Shown here: piece by piece, positions 18,992 through 44,600 of the stretch | Numbering within the stretch: position 1 is the first letter of the stretch | Layout of the letters: each line of letters begins with the position of its first letter | Source of the DNA: a virus | Lineage: Duplodnaviria; Caudoviricetes | Reading direction: 5' to 3' (one strand) | IMG/VR virus record: IMGVR_UViG_3300042905_003262 | Span: 1-59,706 of that record | DNA: 59,706 bases | Notes under the pieces: generated by a model | What the model was told of the DNA's origin: nothing | The model's database searches: none | The model's input: only the letters and a program-made list of their open reading frames with translations | Program-made: the position numbers and the translations under genes

Positions 18992-19744
18992 TTAGTTTAC
19001 GTCTGTGAACGTGCCGGAAGTGAAGAAAGCGCCCCAAGTAGTCGCGCTCAAGGCCACAAGTTCGATGGCGTTCCCGATGGTAGCCGCGCTCGAAATGGCA
19101 TCCCCGGCGGCATTGGTGAGCGCGAGGATTTGCGTGCTGTCTGCCGGGTTAATGTCCACGTCCTGCGCGGCGGTGAGATAGACGCGGAATCGCATCCCCA
19201 CCTGTGGAGCCGGGAGAGTCAGGACTATCGCGCCGGACGCTCCAGTGTTGATAAACGTGCTGCCGTAAAGCTGGTCTGCCGTCAGGGTCGCGGTAGTGGC
19301 CTGCGTGATGACACGTTGAACATGGTTTCGAGCCAAGATATGCCACGAGCTTTGCCCAGCTTGCAGGAAAACAGACTCGTTCGGGCTGGAGAGCGTAATC
19401 GTCGTGGTGCCGTCGATGGTTTCACTGCCGCTGCCGTCAATCGTGATGGCGTTTGCCGTGCTGTCGTTCTTCTGGATGCAGATGATCTGATTCGTCTGAT
19501 TCGTCCCAGCGGGCAGGAGGCCGATGGTGAAGGCCGCCGAGGTGGCGTTGGCGAGCAGCGTATGGTCAGAGCGCGTCATTGTGTAGGCGGCACTGATGGC
19601 TTTGGCGTTAGCCTTGTAGGCAATGCCGGTGCCGTTCTGCGGATCGGTGATGTTGACGAGGCGCTGAGCGGGGGCGTGACTGCACCAAAGCAGGGCGGTG
19701 GTGAGCACGAGAGCAAACAGGGAGGCGAGGCGAGGGTATTTCAT
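18992..19744 (-). CDS. signal-peptide protein with two tail-fibre-like beta-sandwich repeats
   Basis: MKYPRLASLFALVLTTALLWCSHAPA signal; two NATSAAFTIGLLPA / NTGASGAIVLTLPA repeat domains. Upstream TTGACA-N16-AATACT promoter. Confidence 0.7.
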   Translation of the reverse strand: MKYPRLASLFALVLTTALLWCSHAPAQRLVNITDPQNGTGIAYKANAKAISAAYTMTRSDHTLLANATSAAFTIGLLPAGTNQTNQIICIQKNDSTANAITIDGSGSETIDGTTTITLSSPNESVFLQAGQSSWHILARNHVQRVITQATTATLTADQLYGSTFINTGASGAIVLTLPAPQVGMRFRVYLTAAQDVDINPADSTQILALTNAAGDAISSAATIGNAIELVALSATTWGAFFTSGTFTDVN

Positions 19745-19988
19745 GGCGATTTTAGGATGGTTTCAGGGTGCGCTGGAGTATTCAGGAGCGGGGCGGAATG
19801 TCAAGCGCGGGGCATGTTCACGAAAACAGCGGGAATTTCGTGAACAAATGCGTGCTCACTGTCAGCACGTTCCCGTGCTTGCTGTCAAAGTAGCGCAAAA
19901 GCGCCCACATTGGGCGAATCGACTCCCTGAACCGGTCAGGGGAGTGACATTTGGAAAGTCCGCGCCGGTTGAGAGGACTTTTTTCCTG

Positions 19989-20016
19989 TTGACGATTCGA
20001 GGTGAAGCGGCATTAT
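19989..20016 (+). promoter_or_regulatory. sigma70-like promoter of the ncRNA/accessory island
   Basis: TTGACG-N16-CATTAT. Confidence 0.55.
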
Positions 20017-20021
20017 CGCGC

Positions 20022-20650
20022 TCACCAAATAGGTTTGCTCTGTGCGAAGGAGTAATCCGCTCCACTGGCAAACCCACTGAGGCCGACTTTTTCGCACAAG
20101 GTCGGCCTCTTTGTTTGCCGTTTTAGCGCCAACACTCTCACCTGAAAAGGAGGTCACTTGGCAAAGGTATTGAGAGTAGAGTTCAGCGGTGGCGTAATGT
20201 AAATCCGGCATAATCACGTCTAAACCGGGCCTCGCAAAAGGTTCGTAACGCACCGTCGCAAGCGGAGTTACTGGTTCAAGTCCAGTCCGCTGAACTCTAC
20301 TCTCCGAAGGTTGAATTGAGCGGAAGCTATGATACACACCGCCATAGATAGGGGCTTACCCGCCACAGAATGCGTGCCGAACAGTTCGGAACACCACGCA
20401 CCGCAAGCAGACGTTGTTACCTGCCCGCTCAATTCAGCCTTCAAATTCGGCGCATGGTGGATCGCAGTTCAGCCATGCAGAAGTCGCTACGGGAAACTGT
20501 AGGGCTGCGCTGAAAGCATTTGAGTCGTGTTCTACTGAGACAGCCGAGCGACGAGTTTTCAGCGGTGCGAAAGCATCAAAGCGATGATCCTGATTCCCGA
20601 CGAAACAGACAGCTTGCAGTTACCCGGCAACGGGACTGCTTTGCTCCGAA
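20022..20650 (+). ncRNA. large structured non-coding RNA candidate (multi-domain, includes a tRNA mimic)
   Basis: No credible ORF. 18-bp stems 20172-20189/20287-20304 and 20306-20323/20425-20442, T-arm ACTGG-TTCAAGT-CCAGT, and three GNRA hairpins. Confidence 0.75.
20079..20116 (+). terminator. terminator/attenuator-like hairpin
   Basis: GAGGCCGAC/GTCGGCCTC 9-bp stem followed by TTTGTTT. Confidence 0.5.
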
Positions 20651-20686
20651 GCCATCAAGCCCTCCGAAACATAACTCCAACGACCC

Positions 20687-20866
20687 ATGACCACCGCCCA
20701 AACCGCCATCAAAGCCGCCCGCGAAGCCAGCGACCAGCTTGATTTGCTCCACGTCGAGAAAGCCAAACTGGAGCGCGAGCACGATGAAAAGCTCAAACTG
20801 CTCAACGAGCGCATTTCGATTGAGCGGGCGAGGCTTTCGACGCTTCTAGCCATCGCGGATAAGTAA
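20687..20866 (+). CDS. small coiled-coil protein (59 aa)
   Basis: Read by hand: MTTAQTAIKAAREASDQLDLLHVEKAKLERE...; AACGACC leader. Confidence 0.7.
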   Translation: MTTAQTAIKAAREASDQLDLLHVEKAKLEREHDEKLKLLNERISIERARLSTLLAIADK

Positions 20867-20886
20867 TTCACCCCACAACGACCACC

Positions 20887-21144
20887 ATGAAAGAAGTCCA
20901 ACTTGTCACCCTTGTTCAAACGTCACTCACGACTCGCGGAGATGGCGAATCCACCCCAATACGGCGCGTCATGCAATGGTGGACCCAAGAAGGTGAACTT
21001 GTCGCAGAAAATGACCCCTGCTCAGTAATCGTCACCGAAGAAAAACGCCGTGAAATTCATCGGCTTTTTAATGCCGCTGGCCTGAGCCTGGATACTTACG
21101 GATTTCTTATCGAAAACGTCGCGAAGATTTTAAGCTCAAAGTAA
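20887..21144 (+). CDS. hypothetical phage protein
   Basis: RGDGESTPIRRVMQWWTQEGELVAENDP motif; AACGACC leader. Confidence 0.75.
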   Translation: MKEVQLVTLVQTSLTTRGDGESTPIRRVMQWWTQEGELVAENDPCSVIVTEEKRREIHRLFNAAGLSLDTYGFLIENVAKILSSK

Positions 21145-22174: not shown

Positions 22175-22268
22175 AAAATCTAATCGCCGCCCAAATGAGC
22201 AGCGCAACCGCCGTGAACAGCAGCCCGCAAAACACCTGCAAGGACTCGTTGTAGATCGCGGCAATCAT
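22161..22268 (-). CDS. small single-TM membrane protein (35 aa)
   Basis: Read by hand: MIAAIYNESLQVFCGLLFTAVALLIWAAIRFFRLR; ATGA coupled to the amidase gene. Confidence 0.5.
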   Translation of the reverse strand: MIAAIYNESLQVFCGLLFTAVALLIWAAIRFFRLR

Positions 22269-22744
22269 GGCGGTCCAACTTGAATGAGCCAGGGTGAAAG
22301 CGGAATGTGCGACGGTGCGACTTCGGCACTTGGGATGCGTAGAAGTAGCCGCATCCCGGCATCCGCCAGGAACTTGAACACGAACTCGGAGCAGAACCAG
22401 CGTCCATTCTCACGGGCCGGTGACTTGGTTACGAATCGAAGCACGCTCAGGTAGTCGTAGGGCATCCCGAGTTGCCCTTTGGCTTCGTAGTAGGCTTGTT
22501 CATACTGCTCATCTGACATGCTCGGGATCGCGAACCAGTCGATGTGACGAAGCTCTGTTTCAGTCAGGTTATGATGCTGAACGCCTCGAAACTCGCGGGA
22601 TTCAATGACTCGATTTCGACTCCCCGGCACCAGCATGGCCGCATGGGAATAAACGCTTCGAGTCTGGCACTGGATCAACCACGACACGAGGCCGCGCCCC
22701 CGATAAAGGGCAATGCGCGGCTTCATGTTGGGTTCTTGCTGCAT
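22265..22744 (-). CDS. permuted papain-like amidase (YaeF/YiiX, NlpC/P60 C92-like)
   Basis: YSHAAM...GMPYDY...WFCSEFV (His before Cys). Confidence 0.85.
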   Translation of the reverse strand: MQQEPNMKPRIALYRGRGLVSWLIQCQTRSVYSHAAMLVPGSRNRVIESREFRGVQHHNLTETELRHIDWFAIPSMSDEQYEQAYYEAKGQLGMPYDYLSVLRFVTKSPARENGRWFCSEFVFKFLADAGMRLLLRIPSAEVAPSHIPLSPWLIQVGPP

Positions 22745-22981: not shown

Positions 22982-23368
22982 CTATTTTGCGTGCGTTCCC
23001 TCGACCCCGCGAGCCATGCGGTTCCGAGTGCGTTGCAGTAGCCACATTTGAGCTTCTTCGAGCTTTGTCAGCGCGAGGGCGTTTTCACGGCTCGCGAACT
23101 GCCCAGCTTGGAACGACTGGAGACGGTCTATAAGGATAGCCAGAAGCACCTCTTGAGTGATGCCGTTGACGCCAGCTTCCGCAATAGGCCCGTTTTGAAA
23201 GCTCAGAGTGACATGTACGGTGCCGTCTTTCGGATCGGTGCCGTTTGTCTCATCAAGATAGACCTGATAGACGTGGTTTGCGCCGCCTGATCCAGGTTCA
23301 TCAAGAACAGCGATTTTGAGCTTATCGTTGGCTGGATTGACGCGGTGTGATGTAAGTTCTCTAGTCAT
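22982..23368 (-). CDS. tad1: Tad1-family anti-defence nucleotide sponge
   Basis: GGANH.Y, FQNGPI.E.GVNG, LIDRLQ.FQ...F..RENA.A.TKLEEA..WL..RT..R..RGVEGTH. Confidence 0.85.
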   Translation of the reverse strand: MTRELTSHRVNPANDKLKIAVLDEPGSGGANHVYQVYLDETNGTDPKDGTVHVTLSFQNGPIAEAGVNGITQEVLLAILIDRLQSFQAGQFASRENALALTKLEEAQMWLLQRTRNRMARGVEGTHAK

Positions 23369-23390
23369 TGTGTTGGGTTTGGGGTGGAAA

Positions 23391-23522
23391 TCAAAAAGGC
23401 GCATCAAGCCACGGCAATAAATCGTGCCTAGTTGCATTTTTGACCGGCGCATTCATCGGAGCCTCAAAGATGTGCTGGCAGGCTCCAAGAGCCATAGTTG
23501 CGGCGAGAAAGGCGAGTTTCAT
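23391..23522 (-). CDS. small lipoprotein (43 aa)
   Basis: MKLAFLAATMALGA-C lipobox; ATGA coupled to the PAS gene. Confidence 0.6.
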   Translation of the reverse strand: MKLAFLAATMALGACQHIFEAPMNAPVKNATRHDLLPWLDAPF

Positions 23523-29666: not shown

Positions 29667-32600
29667 TCATTTGCCGCCGTAGTTCAGGCGTTTTCGCGCT
29701 TCAATAAGTCGTGCCTTCGCCCTCTCGGCTGCATCGTCTTTCATCGGAACGGGGCGCGGTGGAGTGCTTGGAACTGGCATCGAAGGCGCTGGCGACGGCC
29801 TCGCGGAAGGTGTCGAAGGCGCTGCGGCTGGCGTTGTGGTGCCGAAACGCTCCTCGCGGCCCATGGAGCCGCGCACGGACTTGATGGCGTTGGTCCGAAC
29901 CTCTTTGATCGCGTCGATCATCTGCGGCGTGACCGGCTTACCTGGACGCCAACCAGCCGCCATTAGTTTTCTCCCGGCGTAGTCGGAAAACTTCTGGCCG
30001 ATTTCCTGTTCAAACTTAGTGATTTTGGCCGGGTCTTTGAGGGGAACCTGCTGCATCTTGCCGTCCACTTTCGGGCCGTAAACGTAAAGGTCTGCTTTCG
30101 TGAGCGGGTCGGGATTCCATTGCTGGTCCGGGTTGGTGGCGTTCCACTTTTTAAGCGCGGCGTCAAAAAGTTCCGTGCTGGCCTTGGATGCCACCGGGAA
30201 CAGAACGCGAGTGACGGCATTTCCGCCTCGCTGCACTGGCTGCCCGGCCTCGTTGACTTTGGGCTGACCAATGCCGAGCGAGCGGGAAAGCTCCGATTCG
30301 GCCTTTTTAGCGTCGGCGATTTCGTCTTGGCTGAGACGGTAGGGCTGGCGGATTAAATTCGGGATCGCGCCATTCATCAGGTTTTTCATCAAAAGCTCTT
30401 TAGCCGAGAAGTTTTTACTCCCAGCATCTTCATAAAATTGCATAATACCCGAAATGCCTTGCAGGAATGTCTTTTCCTTCGCCTGAGCGAGGACGTGCCG
30501 CATCATGGAACCGGCGAGCTTGTCGGTGGTGCGGTTTTCGGGCTGGAAGCGGGTCCACTCTTTGAACTCGCGAGCACCGTCAACAAGCGTTGAGAGAGCC
30601 AGCGCGATAGGTTCATAGCGCCCATAGGCAAATTGAATGGGTTTATCCAGTTTTTCGCCCGTGAGCGGGTTTTTGCGGATGATGATAAGGTTTGAGCCGC
30701 CCTCTTGCCGGAGCTGGGAGGCGCGTTCACCAGCATTTGCGACACCAAACGGGCGAGAGCCTGTGATTTCGATAGCCTTTTGGTTGTCGTCGTCGTCACC
30801 CTCAGACATTCCCATGACGATGAACCAAAGAGCCGTCGCCATGACGGATTCGGACACGTCTTTGACCATCGCGCCTTCGCGGTAGGATCGGAACTCGTTG
30901 TTATTGCCCTTGATGGCGTAGTAACCCGACTTGCCGAGGCGATAGAGCAGCATTCCGGCGCTTCCGCCTGCTTTGCGGATACCAGCGCGGTAAATGTTGG
31001 TCGGCGTGCGGACGAAGGGGAGCAGGTAGCGCATGAGGCCACCCACGAATTTAGCCCGCTTGAGCGCATTCGTGACGCCTTCAACGGCCTTCGTGATGTC
31101 GTTTTCGTCCTGGAACGTGAGTTCAGTAGCCTTCTCAAAGGCGTGCTGCCACGACTCGGAGCCGTGCGTTGCAATCTGAGACGCCATGAAGTTTGTCAGA
31201 GCCGCGCCTGCCAAGCCCTGTTTTTTGCCGAGTCGATACGCCATAGCGGCGCTTTCGGCGTGCATGATGAGCGTCTTAGCAAAAGCATCCTGGGCGACAA
31301 GGAAACGGCCTGGAACGCGGACGATACGGCCCAAGGTGCCGCCGAAAGAAGGACGGATGCCGCCCACCTTGTCGAGGTTGCCGCCTTGGAACATGACCGT
31401 GACGGGCTTATCGAGATATTGGTGCTCTACCGGGTCAGCCTCCGTGTCCCATGCGAGCGCAAAGTTGCGCAAGGCTGGCATGATGCCTTTGTAGAAACCG
31501 GCCCAAACGTGCCTAAACTCTCCAAACTGCGGAGCGTTGGGATTGCGGATTGCCACATTTGTGGTCGCTTCCGCGAACCACTGCGGCCCGTAGGCCCATG
31601 CGGTTGAGAGCAGGTTAGAAGCCGTGTTGACGACGTGCGTTTGAGGGCCGGACAAAATGCCGTTGATCCAGTATTCATAAGCCTTGTCGAGCTTGGTAGC
31701 CTCGCGGGTGGAAAGCTCGCGGGCGACACGATAGACCTGCTTCCAATCGGCGGCATTATAGGGCACAAACACCTTTTGGGTCTTTTTGCCGTATGTCCAT
31801 GTAGCCTCATGGAGCCAGTTGGAATTTCGCTGCGATTTCGTTGGGATTGCGGTATTAAGAATGGACTGCACTGCTTCCGCTACTTCTTGGGCGCTGGCGT
31901 TTCGCTTCTTAGCCCTCGTGTTTGCAAGGTCTTCGGCAAGATTGCGCCGTTTGCCGCTCGGAGTTGCCCGCAAGGCATCGTCCATCTCGCTAATGATGCG
32001 CTTACCCCACTGGATGAACTTGCTGAACGTGTTACCTTTGCCGACTTCCTTGGAAACGGCCTGCTTCGCTACGACGTTGCGGAAGTGCTCTGCTGTGTTG
32101 CTTACTTCGGCGACCGAAAGCCCGGTTTCCTTCGCGATAGCGTTGTCGGAGTAGCCGCGAACGCTCATTTCGATGGCCTTTTTGTGAGCCGCCGACTGCT
32201 GGGACAGGTGAACACGGGCGAGGCCAAGAATAGCCTCCTGCATGGCGAAACGGTCATCCACGGACAAGAACAGGTCCGTTTGAGTCAGGCCGTTGCGCTT
32301 CAAGATGGCGTCCACCTTGGCGTCATCCTCGCGGGCGAGTTCTTCCATGACCTCGTTTTGATCCTTGCGAGCCTGGGCTTTCTCAAGCTCACGCTGGGCA
32401 CGTTCGCGTTGAAGCGTGTCTTGTGTCGAGGCGAGGCGGCGCTTGAGTTCCTTGATGGCCGCGAGCTTTTCGGCTCCTGACCACACGTTGACGAGTCTTT
32501 CACGCACCGTCTTGGAACTTGGCGAGAGGATATTCCGCATTGCGTTATCAAGGCGCTGTTGCGGCGTCTCGACCTTATCGACACGAGAGCCGAGCTTGCG

Positions 32601-35600
32601 GGCTGTCTCGCTGGCCTCGCGCATATCGGCCATAAAGAGCAGTTTGGCCTTTGTGCGGCTGGCAGGATTGTCGTTGCCGTCGATCCAGAGCACGCGGGCA
32701 ATCATGCGGCGGGCAATGTCTTCCTCAAGCGAGAGGACGATTCCCTCGCGCATCTTGCCGACGATTTGGTTATAGAGGCGGTCAAAGCCTGCCTGTTCGG
32801 CAATTACCTCGTCAACGGCGGCTTCGATCTTCTGGTAAGAGGCCGTTTCGAGTTCCTTGTCCTCGTAGGTCTGGCTCAGTTTGTCCCATGCGTCACGCGC
32901 ACCGGGCAGGTTGGATGCCTGATTGGCGACGTTGCGGCGTGGTTTCTTGCCAGTGTCGCCCTCTTTGACGGTCGGAGTGGCAAAAAGCGCCTGTCCTGCA
33001 TCAACGCTAGTCCGCATTTGCGGCGTGATGTCCACGCGCCAGATGGGGGTGGTTTTAAAATCACCATCGCGAGGAATTGCAGCTAGCTTGTCCGCTTCGC
33101 TCATTGCGTAAAATTCATCGCGTGAAGTTAGCGCGTCGGGATCGACGTATTCAAGCCATGCCGAATAACTACTGACGTATTTTTTCAGGCTTTCTAAATC
33201 CTCAATCTCACCATTCACCACGCCCGCGCCCCACTGCTTCACATACTTGCCAATTTCTTTCGGCAGGATGGTATCGTAGAAGCCCTTCATGCCTTGGCCG
33301 CCGACTTTCAATTCGTCGCCAGAATAGACGCGGTATCCCATTCCTGGCATATCCGCGATGGCCTTCTCTGCTAACTCCTTGCCCACGGTGTCTGCTAGCT
33401 TGGAGTCAGATAATCCAGCTTGTGAAACAGTTTCGGAGCCGCCCTTAATCCCGATTACCGACCATAGCCCGTCTTGTTGCTTGCGGATATTGAGAGAATC
33501 AACCTGCTTACTGAGGTCAAACCGCTCTGCCTGCGTCTCGCCCGTCGTCCAGCCGATCCACTGCTTGCCAGCGGCCACCGCGTCCGCGAGGGCACGCTTG
33601 AACATCTGGAGCGGCCAGGTGGTGCGGAATGGGGCGTCAGGGATTCGAGCATTCGCAATGTTGTCCAATTTGGACGCCCAATCTTTAGCATATTCAATAG
33701 CCTCGTTTTCCGTGTTTTGAGTAGAAATTGGCTTGCCCGTTGATTTTCTAATAACTACCCAATCGCCAATAAATTGATTGTTGGATGGCTCATATTTAAT
33801 CTCGAAAGTATCATTATAATCAACTTCGCCCTGATACCCCTTCTTCCGCCCTGCCTGATGGCGGTCGCTCTGGATTTCCTCGATGAACGTCCCGGCCTGG
33901 CCCTCGGCGTCCGTGCGGTCGTTCACCCGCATGTGGGCGACGTAGTTCGGCACGTCGGGGAAGTGGCTGGAGGTGTATTCAGGTGGTTCGTTGTAGGCTT
34001 CAGCAGGCGTTTCCGTGATGATTTGGAGGCGCTGCGCTTCCGACAAATCGGCCCATTTGGGTTCACCTCCTCGGCGAACAAAGGTTTCGTAATAAGCGGC
34101 TGCCGCATCCGACATCCCACGCCTCGCTATCGGCATCGCCAGCACCACCTCGCGGTAGTTCTCGCCGCCTGAGAGTTGGTATTGGGAGAATTTGGTGTCC
34201 GTAACTTCGGCTTTGTCGTCACGCATGCGGATCAACCGTTCATGCTCGTTTTTCAAACGGGTGATTTCTGGTCCGTTGCGGACTTCGGTAGGCCATTTAC
34301 TGCGATCTTCTCCATAAACATTGGCTGCGTCTTCTCGGTAGATTCGCATTTGACGCGTCACTTCGTTAATTTGACGAACAAGTTCAGGGTCATACCGATT
34401 TCCTAGCTTTCCCCCCATCCGCACCTCCTCCAGCCTCACCGCGCCATCCGTCGCCAGATATTCCAGCACAGCCTGCTTGGTGATCGGTGACGCCTGCGCC
34501 TCAATCCACGGCAGAATCCCGCTCCATTTCAGTTCCTCGGCCTTGATGCCGGTCTGCGGATTGGTGATGAGGCCCTTGATCGTCGCCACGTCGGCGCGAT
34601 TTGGCATCTTTTGCTCGATAACTTGCGCCAGTTTGGAGTAGAAGGGTTCATTTCGGACAGTTGGGCTGGCCTGCAACGGCTCCTCTACGCCATCGGCGCG
34701 GGAGGATTCAGGGTTGCCAAAATACTTCTCCTCGACCAGTTCATTGAGTTCTGGAAAGAACGTGTCCGATAGATCAAGCCATGAAACATCGCCTGAATTT
34801 ATCTTCTCCACATCAAACTCGATGTCGGCGTGCGTAGCGGCGGAGTCGGTGGCTTCGTGATCAGAAACGCGAACATCAAAAGTCACGGTTAGTTTGCCAG
34901 TGTCTTCATCACGGTCCCAAGACAACCCTTCCCGATCTGCCCACACCTCAGCGTTTGGCCCTTGTTCCGTAGGTTCTGCCAAAACTGTGAAATAGGTCGA
35001 ATTGGAGATGCGGCTGCGTCCTGTCTTGATAATTTTGGCACGACTGAATGCAGAATGATAGGTGTCGCCACGCTGCCAGCCGCGACTCTTAACGCGATCA
35101 AGGAAATTGCGGAAGTAACCGGCGGCAATACGGTTTTGCTCTTTGGTGTCTTCTGCTTCTTGGGCAGCTAAGAACTTTGGATTCTCGTAAATCGGCACCT
35201 CCGCCTCAGAAAGACCGCCCGGTGAAGATTGCAACGGCTCCTTAGTCGCGGCCCACTCTTCTAAGATCGTTTCCGGCGTCTCGGTAGCATTTTCGGCAGC
35301 ATCCATGATTTCCGCGTCCGTGATAGGCGCGAGGGTCATTTTGCCGTCTTGGATCGTCACAAGGGGCGCATAGACGCCGCTTTGAACCGCCTGCATGAAC
35401 TCTTGGCGTGTCAGGTCTGGATTCTTCGACTTCGCGGCAGCATAGACGGCGCTGACTCGTGGCGTGTCGCCTTGCTGGCGTTTGGCGGTCACGAAAGCGG
35501 CGTGGAGGTCTGGAATGGAGACTTTGGGGGCGGCAGGGGTGGCTTGGATGGGTGCCACCTTGCGGCTTTCGGCGGAAGGCAGGCTTTTTGCCAAATCCTT

Positions 35601-38600
35601 TGCATTGCGCACCATTACCTCGCGGCCTGACACGTTGCCGGTAATGCTGTGCCAGCGGTTCCACTCATCCACAAACGACCGCGCCTGTTCAGTAACTTCA
35701 TCGGACTTGCCGAGTTTCGAGAACATTCCAGCCAGTCGATTTGTGAGTTGCGAGTTTGTCGTCCGTTTGGTCGCTATAACGTCAAACACATTGCCTGTTG
35801 ATGTCCTAAACGTGGCCGAGAACTCCGTGAAGTCCTTTTTGATGCTGTCCATGAACTCCTGTTGAACATCGGAAGGCTTTTCCTCGCGGCTTTCTGGTTC
35901 TGCGGCCTCATTGACTCCACGCCAATAAATTCCCCCTCCAGACTTTTCCATCACAACCTCAAATAATGCCAAGTTTGGCCCTGACAAAGTGGACAGAATA
36001 GAATCATCGCCCTTCTTGCGGCCAAGTTTTCTATCTGTTCCCCGCTCGATCCACTCGCCGTCAGAATTGCGCGTGACAATGATGCCGCTTGGCGATGTGC
36101 GATAGGTGCGGGCATATTCGGACTGCCTGTATTTATCGGCGGCGGCCTTCGATCTGGCGTTTTCGGCGGCATCTCGACTGGCTGTCTCCTCAACGATTTT
36201 CGCCATGACCTGCCTCCCTTCGTCTCGCGGCATGATGGCAGTTTTTCCTTCGGTGTCCATTTTAGCCAACGCCAGTGATTCGCGGTCTGCGGCTTGATTT
36301 GTGGAGTTGCGTTTTTCCACATAGACGGACGGATCGCCATTCAGGCGGTGAAAATAGACCGCACGGTTGAAGTCGCCCGTTTTAGCACGCTCTTTTGCCA
36401 CTGCTGCTTCAAGAGTCTCCATCATCGTTGTTTGCGCTGATGTAGGCGGAATAATTTCCGTTTCGGGTTCTGCGGCCATCTCGGGGGATTCGGGCGCGGG
36501 GGAGGCCCACTTCTCAAGTCTGACAGCCAGTTCGTCGGCGTTCAGTTGCCAGAACTTCGCATCCATCTCCAAGGCGCGGCGCATGCGGGACGCTGATGCG
36601 GCAATGTTGCGGTTGTAATCTGGCCCTTTGCGCTCGTATGGCGCGGCCATGGCGAGCAATTCCTGTGGTGTCTTGCCTGCAAGTGTCGTGTCAGCCTGGG
36701 TTTTGAGGCTTGCGGCTTGCGGCGTATCTTCCGCAGCAATAGGGGGGACGGTTTCAACCTTCGTATCCCTTTCCGGCATCGTCGGCTCTACGACCTGCGC
36801 CTTGACGCGCATGATGACAACCTCTGCATCTGGCGAGGTGAGCATGATTGGCCCCTCTCCGCGCTCTGTGCCGCTCTTGATGGCAACTTTCTCGTGTCCA
36901 AGTGCGCGAAAACCTGCCAGCGCATCCATGACGAGTTCAGCGTCAAACGAGCCGACCGCCTCGCCGCCTTCTTGAATGTTGTGCTCGTAGGTTTCGAGGT
37001 TCTGGTTGTTCAAGACTTGGCTCTTAACTCCAAGAGAGCCGTCCTGATTGATGGAAATGGCGACGTAAGGCGTCACGTCCTCGCCTTTGCCCCTAGCAGC
37101 CTTGAAATTGACATCACGAGCAAGAGAACTGGCCTGCTTGAGGATTTGCCACAAGCGCCCCGTGTCGATGCCTTTGTGAATCACTGGAATATCGGCAGGA
37201 ACCACGGCTTTCCAGCCTGGAGGGAATTTCCCAAGTTTTTCATTCTCGGACTGGAGGCCGAGCTTGTTGCCCTTGGTGTTGAACAACATCGGATCGTCTG
37301 CCTTGCCAAACCCTTCAAAGGGAATCGTGAATAGCATCTTTCCATTGGTGGCGACAAGCACATCACCAAAGTCTGCTACCTGCATGATTGTTTGGCGCGT
37401 TTCGTCAGTGCTGGCAAACATGCCCGCCACCTTTACAACGTCTGCCTTGCCAAGTTTGCCGCTTTTGAGTGTCGGGATACCAGACTGGCGAATAGGATTC
37501 AGGGTCGGCGCGTCTGCCGATGGCGTTGTTGTCGGAAAACTCTTGGCAATCTTGGCAAAATTCTGGAGCGTCTTCTTGTCGTTCCAAAGGGTAAAAGTGC
37601 CGTCGCCTGGAATCTCGATCACCACCTTGCTTTCAGATGGAACGCTGGCGCGCACAGCCGCTTCAATATCGACTTTTTTGGCTTTGGGGTCGAGATTGTA
37701 TTTCTCGCGCAGTTTCGCCATTGCTATCCCGACATTTGGCGTGGTCGATTTGTCGCTAAGGCCCATCAGTTCAACCAAGTCTTTGCGAACGTCGCCAAGT
37801 TTGGCCTCGTCCGGCGCTGCCGCAATAGCATCGTCCAGTTTTTCGAGAAGATAGGTCTTCATGGCCCGCAACGCCTTTGTGTCGGCGGGCTTCTTTTCCT
37901 TCACAGGCTCCGGCATCGCCTCTTCCTTGGCTACGGCGGCAGCTTGGGGCGGTGTGAGGTCTGGCAGGGCGGCTAGTTGCGTGGAAACTTTGTCTTTTTC
38001 CGTTCCCATGCCTTTTCGCAGAGTGTAGCGAAGGGCTTCGCGCAACTCGTTGTAAATCTTCTGGTGTGGGGTGTTGAAAATTAGCTGCCCGTCTGCGGTC
38101 TTGGCTCCGACATCTTGCACTAGCTGCATCACGGCCTCCGTGTCGGCCTGATTGACAGCCAAGCGGATTACACGTTGCGGCATGTCCACGCGGCTTTGTT
38201 GGCTAGCGTTCATACCTAGCCACTCGCCAACGAATTGAGCCAGCGGCGAGGCGTAAGGCTCGGACTTGGTTTCTGCTGCGGCTGGCTCGGTATCATTTGA
38301 TACCTCGCGGGTGGTTTCTGACTCGGTGAACGCGGCCTTGATTTTTGCAAAGTCCACATTGCCGTTTTCAGGGTTCATTGCCCCCAACTTGGTCAATCCT
38401 TGCTGCCACTTCGGAGACATGCCGCCTTCAAACTTGGCAGTCTTGCCGCTAATGAAGTCAGCCAGCTTTGCAGTGTTGTAGGCATTGGCAAACTCGTCTC
38501 CAAATATTTCGTTGATCCACGCTACCGCCTTAGAGTCGGCATTGGCAATTAGAGAGCGATCAGATGCCAGTTTATCAGCCTCTTTAGATGCTTGGCTCGA

Positions 38601-41600
38601 TTCCCTTGCCTGTGACTCAGACTCGAAAATAACCGTCTGGAGCATCCTGAGGGCATCAGAATCCATGATGGTGAGTTCCGACTGCAAACGCTCGCCCTTC
38701 TGGTTCATGCGCGACGGCTTTAGACCTGCGTCAGTAAATGCGGTGTGCATCATGTCGCGCTCGTCAATCGTCCAACGGGTGTTGAAGCCCGGCTTCACTA
38801 AACGATCCTTGCGAAGCGTCCATGTTTTGCCATAGCCATCCATCAACGCGACGATTTTTGCGCGGAGTTTAGCAAAGTTTTCTTCGTAGGCTGCATTAAG
38901 TCGTTTCCGTGCTGCCGCATTCGCGTCCTCGGTGGAAACTTCTTCATCCTCCTCTTTCACGAGCATTTGACTGTCACCAAACGGAACACCGTTCAAAACC
39001 TGCTGGTCGGTGAGCTTACTGATGCTGTAGAGGCCATAGAGCGAGTCGCCAATCTTGAACAATCCTGGTAGAACCTTCGTCACGGGCGCATTGCCCCCGT
39101 AGTAGGCGCGAAACCACTTGGAAACCATTTCCTCTGTCACGGGAATGTTCGCCTCTGCGGTTGCGGGCGTGTCGGCTTTGGCTTTCGATTTGGTAACTAC
39201 ATCCAGCGCAGCCTTAATGTCGTCGGGGTGCTCCGTAACAAGAATAGCATCAATCTTCGCCGATGACGGTTGGCGCAAGAGTTCCTTATTGAGTTGCGAA
39301 AGCTGATTGGCGCTCAGTTTATCGAGACGATCTTTGTTGTTGACTGTCAAGGCGTCGAGTCGTGCGCTTTCCTCGTCGGAGATGATGCCGGTTGGCGGCT
39401 GATTGGCCCCTAGAAACTCAATGGCGCGTTGCAGCGTCTCGAATGGCATTCCGCCGACAAGCTCTGCGCCGGATGGCGTGTCATAGGCATGGAAGATGGG
39501 GCTGCCGCGAATACCAGTCTTCTCAACGATCACGAACTTGGCATCTCGATACGCTTCGGTAGCGCCTCTCTTGATGGCCCTGGACAACTCGGTTGATTTG
39601 CCTTCGTCCTGCTCATTCGCGAAAGCTGGAGCCGCCCCCTGTTCAGGAGACGACTCCGTAACTCCTTCCGCGCTTGGTGGACGAGATGAAACTTGGTCAA
39701 GCTCCCCGTAGATCGTAGGCCAGTGCGGATTCTCTTCGAGCGTCGAGTCAAAGCCAGACATCAAGCGCCAGAAAGCTCTGGTGTACTGCCGGAGTGCGCC
39801 ATTCGGAGCAAGTTTGTCGAGCCGTTGCGCCAGTTCTTCCGGCTTGCGAAGTCCGAGATCAATCAAGGTGCTCGCAGCCTTCATCATGGCATCGCGTCGA
39901 TCCTTGGGCAGGTCAGACTGAGCCAATGGCTTTACGGTCGGAGATGCGAACAGGCCAGCAAATGCTTCACCAAGGGCAGCATCGCCTTCGTCCATTTCCT
40001 GCGCTTTTGGCGCTTCTGCTGTCGGTTTGGCGACTTCGGGGGCAGGCGACTCCAGTTTCCACCCTCCAACGGCGGCTTGCGGCTCAACATCGCCTTCGTT
40101 CTCGCCTTCCATGCCCATGACTGGCGTTTCACCCTCAAACGAGATGACTGGCCCCATGCTGCCCTGACTGTCCATGATGATGTCGCCAATCTTGACGGTT
40201 GGGCTATCAAGGTCGGTGCGTTCCCGCTTCTTGGGCGGAGTTGAGTCATTTGGCAGGGCGTTCACCTCGGCCATGGTCATGCCTGAAACCTTTGCGACCT
40301 GCGCAGGCTCCATGCTGGTCTTATCTGGCCCAATCTGAACGTCAAAATTGCCGCCTCCTGTCCGATAAAGCACAAGCATGGGTGTTCCGTTGCGAGTCTT
40401 GCCACGCCACACGGCTGGCGTCTTGAGGAAGGCTAGGCGCTTTTGCCACGCCTCTAGGCGCTTGCCCGCCGCCTGCATGGATTCGGTCATTTCTGGCGGC
40501 GTTCCAGCGCGAGGCTTACCGTTCTTGAAGAAGTACTTGGCAGCGCGGGCGTTGTGATCTGCCACCATTTGAGCCAGAGCCTTCTCTTGAGCCTCAACGG
40601 TTGCCTCGCCTTTCGTCATCGTTTTGGCGTTTGTTGGCATTGTGCTACCGCCTTCGGTCATCACCTGCATGAACCCTTGCGAGTTTGGCGGCGAAATGAC
40701 GATGAATTGATTACCATTCGCGTCCGTAGCCGCATCACCGACAGTCCAGCCTGCCTCATCATTGCCACTTGACTCTTTCTCAGTATTGATAGAAACTGGA
40801 TTCGCAACGGTTGTTGACGACCCTTCAACCGGCTTACCGGAAGTGCTCACGGCCCCGGCGTTTTGAGTTTGCGCAGGCTCAGCGTCGGGGCTGATGCTTT
40901 TCTCGAAGGCGTCGAGGGCATCCGAGACGAGCTTAATGTCTTGATCCACCTGGGCAATCAGGTCATTCCGGGCGGACTCGGACTTGATGCTCGCGAACTG
41001 CTTCCGCAAGTCTCTCAAAAGTGCGAGAACGTCGTCAAGAAACTTGCGCCACTTGTCGGCGAGGTCTTTACCGATGACCTGCTCCGTCATGGTGCCGTCC
41101 TTCATAGCTTCGAGCATGGCGCGATAATACTCGTGGCCGCCGTGGTCTGGATTGAGCGGCTTCGGTTCGAGATCGCGAGCAACACGGCGAACCGAATATG
41201 CCTTCTCGATCTTCTTTTGGACATCTTCTGGAAGCTGGCCCCAAATGTCTTTCACGCGGGCGTCGCCAAGCTGCTCAACTACGAACTTGTGAATCAGCTC
41301 GTGGCGGAAGAATTGGCGGGCCTGAGCAGCGGCGTTGTCGGCGTCGGTGGAATCGCCAACAAAACGAGCCAATGCCGTCTCGGGATTGATAATCAACGCC
41401 TGTTCACGGCGGCCCCATGCGAAGTCAAAGGCCGGATCATCGGTGAGCACAATGGGGAGATGCCCATTGTAGCGGCGCAGACCATCAATGATGGCCTTGG
41501 CGGCAGCGGTGGCTTTGGGCTTATCGCCAGCGGATGCGGCCTGGACAATAGCAGCCATGCGAGCGTGTGCTTGCCCGATGAGTTCGCGGCCTTTGGGCGC

Positions 41601-44600
41601 TTCCGTGTCCACTTCCGCAGGTGCCGTTTCTCCTACTGTCGGGGCGGTTTCGGCGGCTGGAATGTCCGCTTTCGTGGCGGTTTGCGGCTGGCTGGCCTGC
41701 ATGAACTCCGCCAGCGTCGGGGCATAGAAGGATTCACCCTCGCGAACGGCTTTGGCTTGAGTGCGGACAGCCTCGTTGTAGTTCACCAGTATGGTGCGCA
41801 GCACGCCGGGGCCGATCTTCATTTTGGCGGCAAGGCGCGTGATGATGTCTTTCGCGGCTTCCGCATCCGCCATAGAGCCTTTGTCGGTCTGGCTTTTCTT
41901 GATCTTGGCCGCGTAAGCAAAAGCGTCGGCATCGTCTACGGTGGCAAATTCCGCGTAAGACGCTTGGCCTCCTGCGCCTTTACCAATGGCCTTGCGTTGC
42001 AATGGGGGTGCTTTGCCAAGTGCGGGGCGAGTAGCTACTGCTTTAGCGGCTCCCGGCGTCGGTGCAACCTTGGCTTGCCGGTCTGGTGAAGCGCCTTCCA
42101 CCGCCCCCTCCGATGCGGATGGACCCGACTGCACTTTGGGGGCGGTTTCAGGCGCGGGAGCGGGTTGTTTGGCTTGCTTTGGCGTGACTTTCAAGGAGTC
42201 TGCGTGCATGGAGAACTCACCAGATAGATTTGTGTATAAGTAATCCTGTGCGACATTACCTTCAGTGGTGTCTCTCACCACCTTTGATCCATCTAGCTGA
42301 ATCTCAACTCGGCCCGTGCGAGCGTTGCCATTGCCATCTACCCATTCTACGGTATCGCCTTTGTTTAGAGCTTTGAAGAAATCTTCATTAGCCTTTACGT
42401 TGAGCGCAGCCTGCATGTCTTCCCAAGCATCGCGGGTCATCCCAGCGGCTTTTGCAGCGGCTTCTCTTTTTTCTTTTGTTGCTTGGCGGTCTATATCCCC
42501 ATCAGCATCTCTTACAATATAGGATTTTCTTTCAGCATTACGCTTCCGATGAATTTCCGATGGATCGGCTGGCGTTGCTGCTGGCGTGGCGGCGGCTTCT
42601 GGCTCGGAAATGATGGTTGTGGCAGACTTGAGTTTTACCCCATATTTGTCTGCAATCGCTTGAGTATTGTTGTCTGCGAGATGCTTGTCCAAAAATTCAA
42701 GCTCGGCCTCTTCATCTTTGGACAATTGGCGTGAGATAGTGGCAATCGTTTTAGCATCTCCAGCTTTTCCATCTCTCTTCCACGTTAGTTCGTTCTGGCG
42801 ATTTTGCGCGAGCTTGCGAAGGCGGGTGCCAGACATCTCTTGTTTGGGCTTAGGCTTTGGTTTCGGCCTATTGATCGCCTGGATTCGCTCGGCTTCGGAC
42901 TGCCCGATGGTGAGGTCAGGCAACGCGCCCTTGAGCCAGTCGCGGGCCTCATCCGTGATAATGATTTGATCGACTCCGGCCTTGTTTGTGCGGGTATAGA
43001 TGAGCGGCGCGGGAGAATTTGCACCACCGGCAGGAACAAGTTTGCGGTTTTTGTCGAGCTTGACACCAAGTGCGCGCATCTGCGTCTCTGTGAGGGATGC
43101 AGAATCGGTGATTTCGCCGGATGCAATACCGGCCACTGCATCCATGGCAGCGCGAGCTTTGGCGTTGATTCCGCTCTCTTGGCCTTTCGGCACGGTGCGA
43201 ATCACGGCAGGCATCGCTTGGATGGACTCAGGAGCCGTAGGGTTGAAAGCCGCAATCGCAGCCTGAACGGCAGCCCTTTCTTCGGGAAGTGGTCCGGCGT
43301 AGGGATTTGTAGCTTCGGGAGCTTCGGGAGCTTCCGGCGCAATGTCTGGAGGCAAACCACCTGCACGGCGATCCATCCTGTCCTTCAAGGCTTGCATACC
43401 GCCACCCATGAGGCCAGAGGCAACGACAAGCTCAGGCAAGCCGGTGATAAAATCGCGCACTACATCATCAGGATTTCGCCCTTCCGCGTAGCCCTGTGCG
43501 AGCTGCGACATGGCCTCGTCAATGACCTCTTCGGGGATTTCATCAAGCGCACCTTTGGTGATAGCTTTCCCGCTGGACATAAAACCGGCCACCATGGCGC
43601 GGACCGAAGCGCGGGCCTCGGGATTGTTGGCAAGAGCCGTGACACCACCGGGGAAGAGCTTTGTAAGTCCCGCCGTCATGGCTCCGGCTGCGAGCGATGC
43701 AGGCGCAGAGGCTTTCCATGCTTCCATGTGGCTTTTACCCTCGTTGCGAAGGGTGTTGTAAGCCTCACCGTAGAGCGAGCCTGCCGTTTGCGCCCCGCCA
43801 AAGATCATGCCACCTGCCATGGAACCAGTGGCGACCGTGGCAGCGACACCGGGAGCCATGCGGGCAATCGTGCCCGCAATGCTGCCGGCCAAGCCCGTGT
43901 TGGAGAGTTGCTCTTGGGTGTTGACCAGTGAGGCCGCGTTTTCGGCGTTTGCTGCCGCCAATTTAGACCAACCTTCTCCAGCCACAGGAATGTTGCCCGT
44001 CAAAGCCGCAGTCGTGCCGAGAACTGCCTGCGTGACATCCATGAAGCCTGCCGTGACGTTGGAGGCGATCAAATCAGCCCATCGGCGGAAGAACGAACGC
44101 CCCTTCATTTGCTCCTGATACATCAAGGCTTGATCCACGGCATCCATGGCGGCGAATCCGTTCTTGCCGCCTACCTTTTGGTCCTCCTCAATCAAATGGT
44201 CGCGCCATTCGTTGAAATCAGTTCCAAAAGCTGATTGTTTCGCAAAGGCGGTAAGCAAGCCTTCGCCGTATTGGCGACGGTAGGACGGCCAGAGCTTCAT
44301 TGCCTCGGCCTTTTGTTCCGGCGTGCCGTCTGCGGCTTCGATGACTTTCTTGAATGCCTCCTCGTCACCGCCAAGGACAGGATTCGGAATGATGGCACCG
44401 TTTGGCAGCCTGCGAACCGGCTCCAGCATATCCGTAATGCCGAGCTTTTCGCGCAATGGCCGCGTCAATTCGGCGGACTTCTCGGCTTTCTCGGGGTCCA
44501 ACGGACTCGACCAATCAAGTTGACGGCGAGTCTCCATGTAGTTTCGGGCCTCTTTCTCATCAAGTCCCATCTCTTTGACCTTGGCCTTGAAGTTTGCAGG

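Follow-up and report, generated by a model that had tools for sequence, protein, structure and literature searches.

The virus record IMGVR_UViG_3300042905_003262 of IMG/VR (Duplodnaviria; Caudoviricetes), analysed here over its full 59,706 nucleotides (the window), carries at 20172-20304 on the plus strand a short element, el1, which very probably encodes a real non-decoding RNA that is derived from a tRNA and belongs to a family of RNAs closed by a long "clamp" helix. Sequence comparison further suggests that el1 and its neighbour el2 belong to arrays of two or three such modules in uncultivated phages, in which the clamps are conserved and the enclosed cores are unrelated to one another and exchanged. 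We put the fuller explanation, that is, a tRNA-derived clamped RNA which is processed and then serves as a mimic or decoy, at a probability of roughly 0.55.

A tRNA-like fold within an extended acceptor stem

El1 as a unit is supported by an 18/18 inverted repeat, by the minimum free energy (MFE) fold and by homologous clamps in 24 loci (window included). The 5' arm of the clamp (20172-20189, plus strand; sequence class GAGAGYAGARTTCAGCGG) and the 3' arm (20287-20304, plus strand) form a continuous helix of two parts. The outer part is an 11-bp extension, in which GAGAGTAGAGT (20172-20182) pairs with ACTCTACTCTC (20294-20304), and the inner part is an acceptor-like stem of 7 bp between TCAGCGG (20183-20189) and CCGCTGA (20287-20293). 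Inside the clamp, all on the plus strand, there follow a TG linker (20190-20191), a D-arm analogue (20192-20251) whose 4-bp stem, GCGT at 20192-20195 with ACGC at 20248-20251, surrounds a 52-nt insert with inner hairpins, a vestigial anticodon arm (20253-20265) that can be drawn as CCG-TCGCAAG-CGG with 3 bp or, in the MFE fold, with 4 bp and a 5-nt loop, a variable region AGTT (20266-20269), and a T-arm (20270-20286), ACTGG-TTCAAGT-CCAGT, whose 5-bp stem contacts the clamp without any spacer. A preliminary description of this DNA had listed these stems for 20172-20304, with 11 extra acceptor pairs and no CCA, and we found every one of them as listed.

The clamp is a perfect inverted repeat, and the window has no longer one; when its sequence was dinucleotide-shuffled 40 times, the longest arms were 11-14 bp. 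The 151-nt stretch that includes el1 folds at -57.3 kcal/mol (z = -5.0), and none of 200 shuffles was as stable. When the cloverleaf with the swollen D-loop is enforced, it amounts to -54.8 kcal/mol, against -56.5 kcal/mol for the unconstrained fold with a five-way junction, so that the two folds are near-isoenergetic (1.7 kcal/mol apart). As in tRNA, a T-arm with the T-loop consensus is stacked on a 7-bp acceptor. A 5-bp anticodon stem carrying a 7-nt loop with U33 is absent from el1, the loop TCGCAAG having C, not U, at position 33. Moreover, the 3' end is fully paired with the 5' leader and leaves neither an unpaired discriminator nor a CCA end. With its stub of an anticodon arm, C33 and the paired 3' end, el1 as encoded is predicted to be incapable of decoding. 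A scan for a T-arm plus a 7-bp acceptor across the window and 83 other loci gave eight ordinary tRNA-like matches with 0-1 extra pairs; 11 extra pairs were seen in el1 only.

The tRNA ancestry is best seen in relatives that share the clamp. With the Rfam tRNA model (threshold 29), el2 of locus L092 scored 34.1 bits with a full cloverleaf and el1 of L085 scored 32.0 bits, so that homologues with the same clamps satisfy the model; el2 of L087 reached 28.8. When el1 of L085 is aligned to the model, an insertion of 53 nt falls in the D-loop, which is the position of the 52-nt insert in el1 of the window. Between these two el1 modules, the D-stems (GCGT/ACGC vs GCTC/GAGC) and the T-stems (ACTGG/CCAGT vs GCGGG/CCCGC) differ by compensated changes, the T-loop TTCAAGT is identical, and the U-purine linker, the short anticodon arm and the 4-nt variable region are common to both; otherwise they share architecture only. 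This shared architecture, together with the tRNA-model score of L085 el1, gives comparative support for the tRNA-like model and fixes the strand. A T-loop-like last hairpin occurs in about a third of the family cores, with UUCRANU in the MFE fold of 6 out of 31, and near-variants of this hairpin are present in L087 el2, L085 el0, L099 el2 and L088. In every family member the acceptor continues into the clamp and no 3' end is free.

These comparisons bear on two earlier suggestions. The view of el1 as a non-decoding tRNA look-alike holds, given the anticodon stub of 3-4 bp with C33, the paired 3' end, the lack of an ARAGORN or Rfam call and the tRNA-like homologues. A simple decaying pseudogene without conserved pairing, which had been considered as the contrary case, does not agree with the homologues, since their pairing is kept via compensatory changes.

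One could also think of a functional tRNA gene whose precursor is unusual: the clamp is removed, the insert is tolerated or excised, CCA is added and the product is charged. In bacteria, tRNA genes without an encoded CCA are common, and el2 of L092 is a complete cloverleaf (34.1 bits, as above) that ARAGORN calls as tRNA-Met(CAT), 70-74 nt long. However, this is the one ARAGORN tRNA in 11 related loci scanned, and the tRNA model alignment shows G at its position 33. El1 itself has an anticodon stem of only 3-4 bp with C33 and gets neither an ARAGORN call nor an Rfam tRNA match, and D-loop introns are, to our knowledge, not known from bacteria or their phages. Such a gene is the least probable of the alternatives considered in this study and, for the window element, it is excluded by the anticodon arm and the paired 3' end.

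Searches of RNA families gave little outside the tRNA model. Rfam 15 at its gathering score had no match in the whole window, where ARAGORN reported no tRNA or tmRNA gene. In 10 related loci at E <= 1, Rfam gave the tRNA matches and two irrelevant ones and no other family for any core, and nothing relevant appeared at E <= 5 in L110, L099 and positions 6850-7600 of L084.

Conserved clamps and exchangeable cores

A paralogous clamped module, el2 (20306-20442, plus strand), begins 1 nt after el1, and its clamp class, GAAGGYTGAATTGAGCGG, is present in relatives. The el2 clamp has 18 pairs (17 Watson-Crick and one G.U) and encloses four inner hairpins (z = -5.3), and its last hairpin, GCAG-10 nt-CTGC, has no T-loop. 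The clamp arms of el1 and el2 are identical at 12 of 18 positions and the differences are compensated, indicating that the two modules are paralogues. The preliminary description mentioned neither el2 nor the fact that it is the clamp, rather than the core, that is conserved in relatives.

Pieces of the island that harbours el1 and el2 recurred as assembled contigs, with the module order shuffled, in the RNA-library runs X19, X20, X22 and X24 (freshwater, wastewater and vent), and this prompted a search by clamp arms. The family was collected with exact clamp arms, motifs and blastn in viral contigs and metagenome contigs. In viral contigs, the exact 3' arm of el1 hit three stretches and that of el2 hit eight, all of which were kept. 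The el1/el2 junction motif hit 18 stretches in metagenome contigs, and 11 of them were confirmed by blastn; the other seven (L095, L097, L098 and L103-L106) were discarded as chance matches because their similarity was confined to the motif. A motif from the RNA downstream of el2 gave nine stretches in viral contigs and thereby five new loci with the island, and a leader motif gave 28 stretches (20 new), among which there was one new relative, L141, the other 19 being set aside. The 19-nt junction motif hit 13 stretches in 185,579 species genomes and none was kept: 12 were similar in the motif only and L126 in 21 nt, and about nine chance matches are estimated for this 19-mer. No match to the 21-mer of T-arm plus acceptor was found in viral contigs. 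We also found no cultured phage with the island when the gap of the window and the islands of L092 and L084 were compared by blastn with 50,697 phage records. Loci with relatives of the neighbouring 250-amino-acid (aa) protein (two) or of the neighbouring 104-aa protein (best 80 of 547) had no nucleotide similarity to the gap, and the major-head-like protein had no relative in viral contigs. A full-text literature search returned no description of such clamped elements, and the motif could be listed in the supplementary tables of a published catalogue with 10,006 candidates for structured RNAs of viruses (PMC10690425).

In total, 24 phage or metagenome loci (window included) contain 50 clamped elements, 31 of them unique. 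By sequence, three classes of clamp can be told apart, el0 (GAAAACAGAATCCAGCGG), el1 and el2 (the latter two given above). The order el0-el1-el2 is invariant, with a constant spacer of 7 nt separating el0 from el1 and one of 1 nt separating el1 from el2. The modules are 93-208 nt long among relatives and keep no reading frame. Their cores vary from 57 to 172 nt, and the 31 unique cores separate into 24 blastn clusters. The last hairpin meets the clamp without a spacer in 21 of the 31 unique elements, so that a coaxial stack in the style of acceptor and T-arm appears to be preserved.

Where an array has three modules, CTCTCC at the end of the 3' arm of el1 has an alternative partner in a Shine-Dalgarno-like GGGGAG immediately beyond el2 (L084 7324-7517; L085 5887-6008, minus strand), and this pairing lengthens the el2 clamp to 23-26 bp. 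It could represent a switch that links clamp formation to translation of the next small open reading frame (ORF).

When the clamps are aligned, the 558 pair cells consist of 522 Watson-Crick pairs, 27 G.U as read on the plus strand, 6 A.C and 3 others. Double compensatory changes were observed in clamp columns 3, 4, 6, 7, 10 and 13 and at the inner end of the L087 type. The excess of G.U (27 vs 6) favours an RNA read off the plus strand, and it bears on whether the element instead acts as DNA, as miniature transposon ends, a recombination site, a cruciform or a single-strand initiation signal. Families of miniature inverted-repeat transposable elements typically have conserved terminal inverted repeats and variable interiors, which is a resemblance to our arrays. 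The island is also portable, with one match when 20 proteins of the window were searched against 27 loci, and the minus strand of el1 folds equally well. On the other hand, the fixed module order and the fixed spacers of 1 and 7 nt do not suit a mobile DNA element. No target-site duplications were recognised by eye, the record has the island at one locus with no other copies in the window, and the junction motif stays at chance level in the species genomes. In addition, the clamp cells that are not Watson-Crick are mostly G.U on one strand, and on that same strand two modules pass the tRNA covariance model. A DNA-level element is thus very improbable.

The next question is whether the cores are under selection. 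For the el1 core type of L089, L102 and L110, whose identity is about 75%, 44 pairs are predicted, and double compensatory changes affect 15 of them in three sequences; 6 further such pairs come from the el2 core type that L102 and L110 have in common. The same cores turn up in different combinations: L089 joins this el1 core type with the tRNA-like el2 type of L085, and L102 joins it with the el2 type of L110. The core of L088 lies in a clamp of el2 type, with two changes in the 5' arm, and a contig of X19 has an L088-type core in an el1 clamp, beside an el2 of the window type with a single difference in 160 nt. L117 resembles the window in its flanking modules A and C (88% and 95% identical, respectively; see below), but the core of its only clamped element is unrelated, which means replacement rather than drift. 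As far as the alignments tell, the cores are functional and are exchanged between lineages, not decaying.

The main rival to our interpretation says that only the clamps are functional, as RNase III sites, barriers to 3' exonucleases or stability hairpins, and that the cores are neutral filler, the el1 core being a decaying tRNA remnant. Conserved clamps around non-homologous cores of 57-172 nt would be expected in this case, and the el1 and el2 cores of the window have z of about +0.2 to +0.3. Moreover, in L084, L085, L086, L096 and L107 the array is part of an operon, flanked there by the genes for the terminase large subunit and the portal, and the pairing of the el1 3' arm with GGGGAG in L084 and L085 would suit a role of the clamps by themselves. 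This explanation is weakened by the covariation in the cores and by their intact reassortment. Neutral filler would hardly keep the helices of one core type through 15 double compensatory changes in three sequences, nor compensate the T-arm and the D-stem between the window and L085. Likewise, cores shift intact between clamp contexts, and the flanks of L117, up to 95% identical to those of the window, enclose a wholly different core, pointing to replacement. We consider the clamp-only explanation unlikely, and we prefer the reading in which both the clamp and the tRNA-derived core of el1 are functional.

The RNA island and its genomic setting

El1 and el2 lie in a 1.1-kb gap (19745-20886) that is occupied by an RNA island, with a leftward structural operon on one side and three small rightward genes on the other. 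Five ORFs of at least 60 aa overlap the gap, and none of them has a Pfam or PHROG family. Antisense pairing longer than 12 nt is absent between either core, module A or module C and the rest of the window.

Upstream of the clamped modules, a promoter-like site (19989-20016, plus strand; TTGACG, 16 nt, CATTAT) is conserved in L090, L100, L101, L113, L114 and L117. It is followed by module A (20017-20120, plus strand), which looks like a pseudoknotted small RNA closed by an intrinsic terminator (20079-20109). Module A has a helix of 20032-20038 with 20068-20074, a GGA-GTAA-TCC hairpin at 20049-20058 that is conserved as GGA-GNRA-TCC, and a pseudoknot between the terminator loop (20091-20098) and 20041-20048, whose pairing is kept by eight sequence variants across the 11 loci aligned. 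Module A might act as a riboregulator, or as an antitermination element, that governs read-through into el1 and el2.

The leader (20121-20171, plus strand) contains the hairpin CTC-ACCTGAAAAG-GAG (20137-20152) and then GGTCACTTGGCAAAGG (20152-20167). It is 84-89% identical in 11 loci, and its stem covaries as CTC/GAG, CGA/TCG, CGC/GCG and CGCC/GGCG. A Shine-Dalgarno-like AAGGAGG (20146-20152) stands 5 nt before a TTG at 20158, from which a frame of 14 codons runs to TAA at 20200-20202 and so enters the el1 clamp. This is probably no start site because relatives have AAGGCGG or AAGTCGG there, as one side of the covarying hairpin. In loci of the L087 type, a second promoter-like sequence (TTGACGCTTTGAGG...TATACC) directly precedes the leader (L087 2370-2400; L090 5970-6000). 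It has TTGACGNTTYGAGG in common with the site at 19989 of the window, and this extended motif, TTGACGNTTYGAGG, may mark a class of phage-specific promoters.

Module C (20443-20680, plus strand), a structured RNA of about 235 nt, follows el2. In nine sequences, 14 of its 62 predicted pairs show compensatory double changes, and its sequence is 77-95% identical between phages that otherwise have hardly any flanking proteins in common. Neither module A nor module C has an Rfam match.

These units raise the possibility that A, the leader, el1, el2 and C form one large RNA of about 680 nt (20017-20680), with el1 and el2 as peripheral arms in the manner of GOLLD or ROOL. Four adjacent covarying structured units do fill the gene-free gap of 1.1 kb, and these units occur together in the window and in L088, L092, L099, L110 and L117. 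But the units are separable and reordered elsewhere: L113-L115 have A and C without the clamped array, L084-L086, L096 and L107 have the array alone, and in L090, L100 and L101 the array is upstream of A. In addition, an intrinsic terminator closes module A, and Rfam found no GOLLD or ROOL. A single large RNA is accordingly improbable, and we keep to el1 and el2 as separate clamped modules within the island.

The IMG/VR record is linear and complete at 59,706 bases, with an estimated genome completeness of 65%. Its annotated phage genes include those for major-head-like and terminase-like proteins, an exonuclease/RecT pair, a DnaB-like helicase, methyltransferases, an endolysin and an Acb2/Tad1-like protein. 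Metagenomes of lake water contain near-identical DNA: among 24 runs listed, 18 have half or more of the sampled words, and 13 of these 18 possibly represent the source sample. In seven loci (L084, L085, L086, L096, L107, L088 and L092) the island is placed between the genes for the terminase large subunit and the portal. The L087-type loci were also considered as terminase neighbours and were rejected, as their upstream ORF of 608 aa has no family, is unrelated to the terminase-like protein of 608 aa in the window and is maybe spurious.

Two further features of the window may be mentioned. The Acb2/Tad1-like protein (22982-23452, minus strand; 156 aa) has the Acb2/Tad1 hairpin domain (Pfam PF24729, 29.7 bits, cut-off 27); its gene is 2.5 kb from the island and adjoins a C92-family amidase-like gene (22265-22744). 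Acb2 and Tad1 are anti-defence proteins that sponge cyclic-nucleotide signals. Farther away, a single ORF of 5,470 codons (29667-46079, minus strand) is exceptionally long for a phage of about 60-90 kb.

Proposed role and comparison with known systems

We propose the following course of events for el1. The modules would be transcribed within a polycistronic non-coding transcript, which in the window would start at the promoter-like site at 19989 and read through into el1 and el2. A continuous helix of about 23 bp would then form by stacking of the extension (11 bp), the acceptor (7 bp) and the T-stem (5 bp); helices of this size class are cut by bacterial RNase III. In its geometry, to which this comparison is confined, the 18-bp clamp with the abutting 5-bp T-stem (about 23 bp, about two turns) does correspond to an RNase III substrate. 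The middle of this helix coincides with the acceptor end, so the product of a cut there would be shaped like a tRNA, carry a phosphate at its 5' end and a short overhang at its 3' end, and have its ends protected by a duplex. RNase P is an unlikely first enzyme, since the flanks are paired throughout. RNase III, a CCA-adding enzyme, Ro (TROVE) and reverse transcriptase are not encoded in the 65%-complete record, and host enzymes would therefore have to act. Finally, the released core would engage, as mimic or decoy, those proteins of the host that recognise RNAs of tRNA-like shape, and other cores would bind other partners. Conserved sockets with diverse, selected and exchangeable cores are fitted best by protein-binding mimics or decoys. 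The two particular steps of RNase III release and decoy action are put forward tentatively, as less probable than the tRNA origin and family membership of el1.

Several observations weigh against this explanation. Thermodynamically, the 97-nt core of el1 without the clamp is not unusual (z = +0.2), so that the stability signal of el1 derives from the clamp; since the core is no more stable than its shuffles, the tRNA-like reading of it needs comparative support. The minus strand also folds, at -56.3 kcal/mol, and for this reason the strand has to be inferred from homologues. The G.U excess that favours the plus strand shrinks to roughly 10 vs 4 independent events by our own count. Even at E <= 10, Rfam 15 placed no tRNA in 19700-20900 and gave three irrelevant weak matches, two of them on the minus strand. 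The exact architecture of el1 was found, besides the window, only in L085 and L086. About two thirds of the family cores are not tRNA-like, so tRNA mimicry cannot be the common function of the family. RNase III is suggested by helix length only. Finally, the RNA-library contigs cross the clamps uncut and may derive from DNA; they show neither transcription nor ends nor level, and stretches that they leave uncovered carry no weight.

A broader version of the proposal would take the clamps as a scaffold for display and exchange of RNA, with double-stranded sockets in a fixed array, and the swapped cores (tRNA mimics and other folds) as released, nuclease-protected decoys or inhibitors, each against another RNA-binding or RNA-sensing protein of the host, in an RNA-level arsenal for counter-defence or host takeover that would evolve through the exchange of cassettes. 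We regard this extension as doubtful. A constant helix around a replaced fold, with at least 24 core types in 31 unique elements, suggests that phages can deploy small structured RNAs in large number and in modular fashion. Should the cores act as decoys for defence nucleases or for enzymes that recognise tRNA, the arrays would be an RNA counterpart of the protein anti-defence islands; if the clamps are processing sites only, they would represent a new processing route for phage non-coding transcripts. Modules A and C add two unclassified structured RNAs with strong covariation.

Non-decoding RNAs of tRNA shape are known from cells (Y RNAs and tmRNA) and from eukaryotic viruses, and few are known from phages. 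With canonical tRNA and pre-tRNA (RF00005), el1 has in common the 7-bp acceptor-like stem, the U-purine linker, the 4-bp D-stem, the 4-nt variable region and the stacked T-arm. It differs in the 52-nt insert of the D-loop, in the anticodon arm of 3-4 bp without U33 and in the 11-bp continuation of the acceptor. We know of no tRNA-shaped non-decoding RNA whose acceptor stem is locked into a long duplex.

The closest cellular likeness is to YrlA, a non-decoding RNA that is bound by the Ro60 orthologue Rsr, is also present in some phages, and consists of a long helix pairing its ends and a tRNA-like domain with a T-arm. In YrlA the terminal helix enters the tRNA-like domain at the position of the anticodon stem and the acceptor is closed by a loop, whereas in el1 the terminal helix is the extended acceptor itself. 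The preliminary description had brought up tmRNA and bacterial Y RNA as possible kin, and neither kinship found support. YrlA had no Rfam match at E <= 10 in 19700-20900 or at the gathering score in the window, tmRNA had no ARAGORN or Rfam match in the window, and the TROVE/Ro family PF05731 had no match in the 59.7-kb, 65%-complete record, compared with matches in 2 of 14 control genomes. A retron is likewise not indicated, as reverse transcriptase (PF00078) had no match in the record.

GOLLD and ROOL are large, elaborate, covarying phage-associated non-coding RNAs that can adjoin or contain tRNAs. In contrast, the clamped units are small, separable and reorderable, and Rfam matched neither family in the window or in the related loci searched.

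Viral and cellular precedents exist for the use of tRNA shapes in processing. The vtRNA/TMERs of murine gammaherpesvirus 68 and mascRNA of MALAT1 are uncharged tRNA-shaped units in longer non-coding RNAs and probably act as handles for the tRNA-processing enzymes of the host. They are eukaryotic, have single-stranded flanks and are cut by RNase P and RNase Z; the flanks of el1 are instead paired along their whole length, a feature expected to hinder RNase P and to suit a nuclease specific for double strands. The RNase III stems of rRNA operons and of T4 and T7 are duplexes of leader and trailer round a structured RNA within a polycistronic precursor, and RNase III has been reported in the processing of the T4 tRNA cluster. 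The clamps resemble such stems and enclose, in place of rRNA, variable cores of about 60-170 nt. In its proposed mode of action, el1 is most similar to a combination of the two, a virus-encoded tRNA-shaped processing unit set into a processing stem of the rRNA type.

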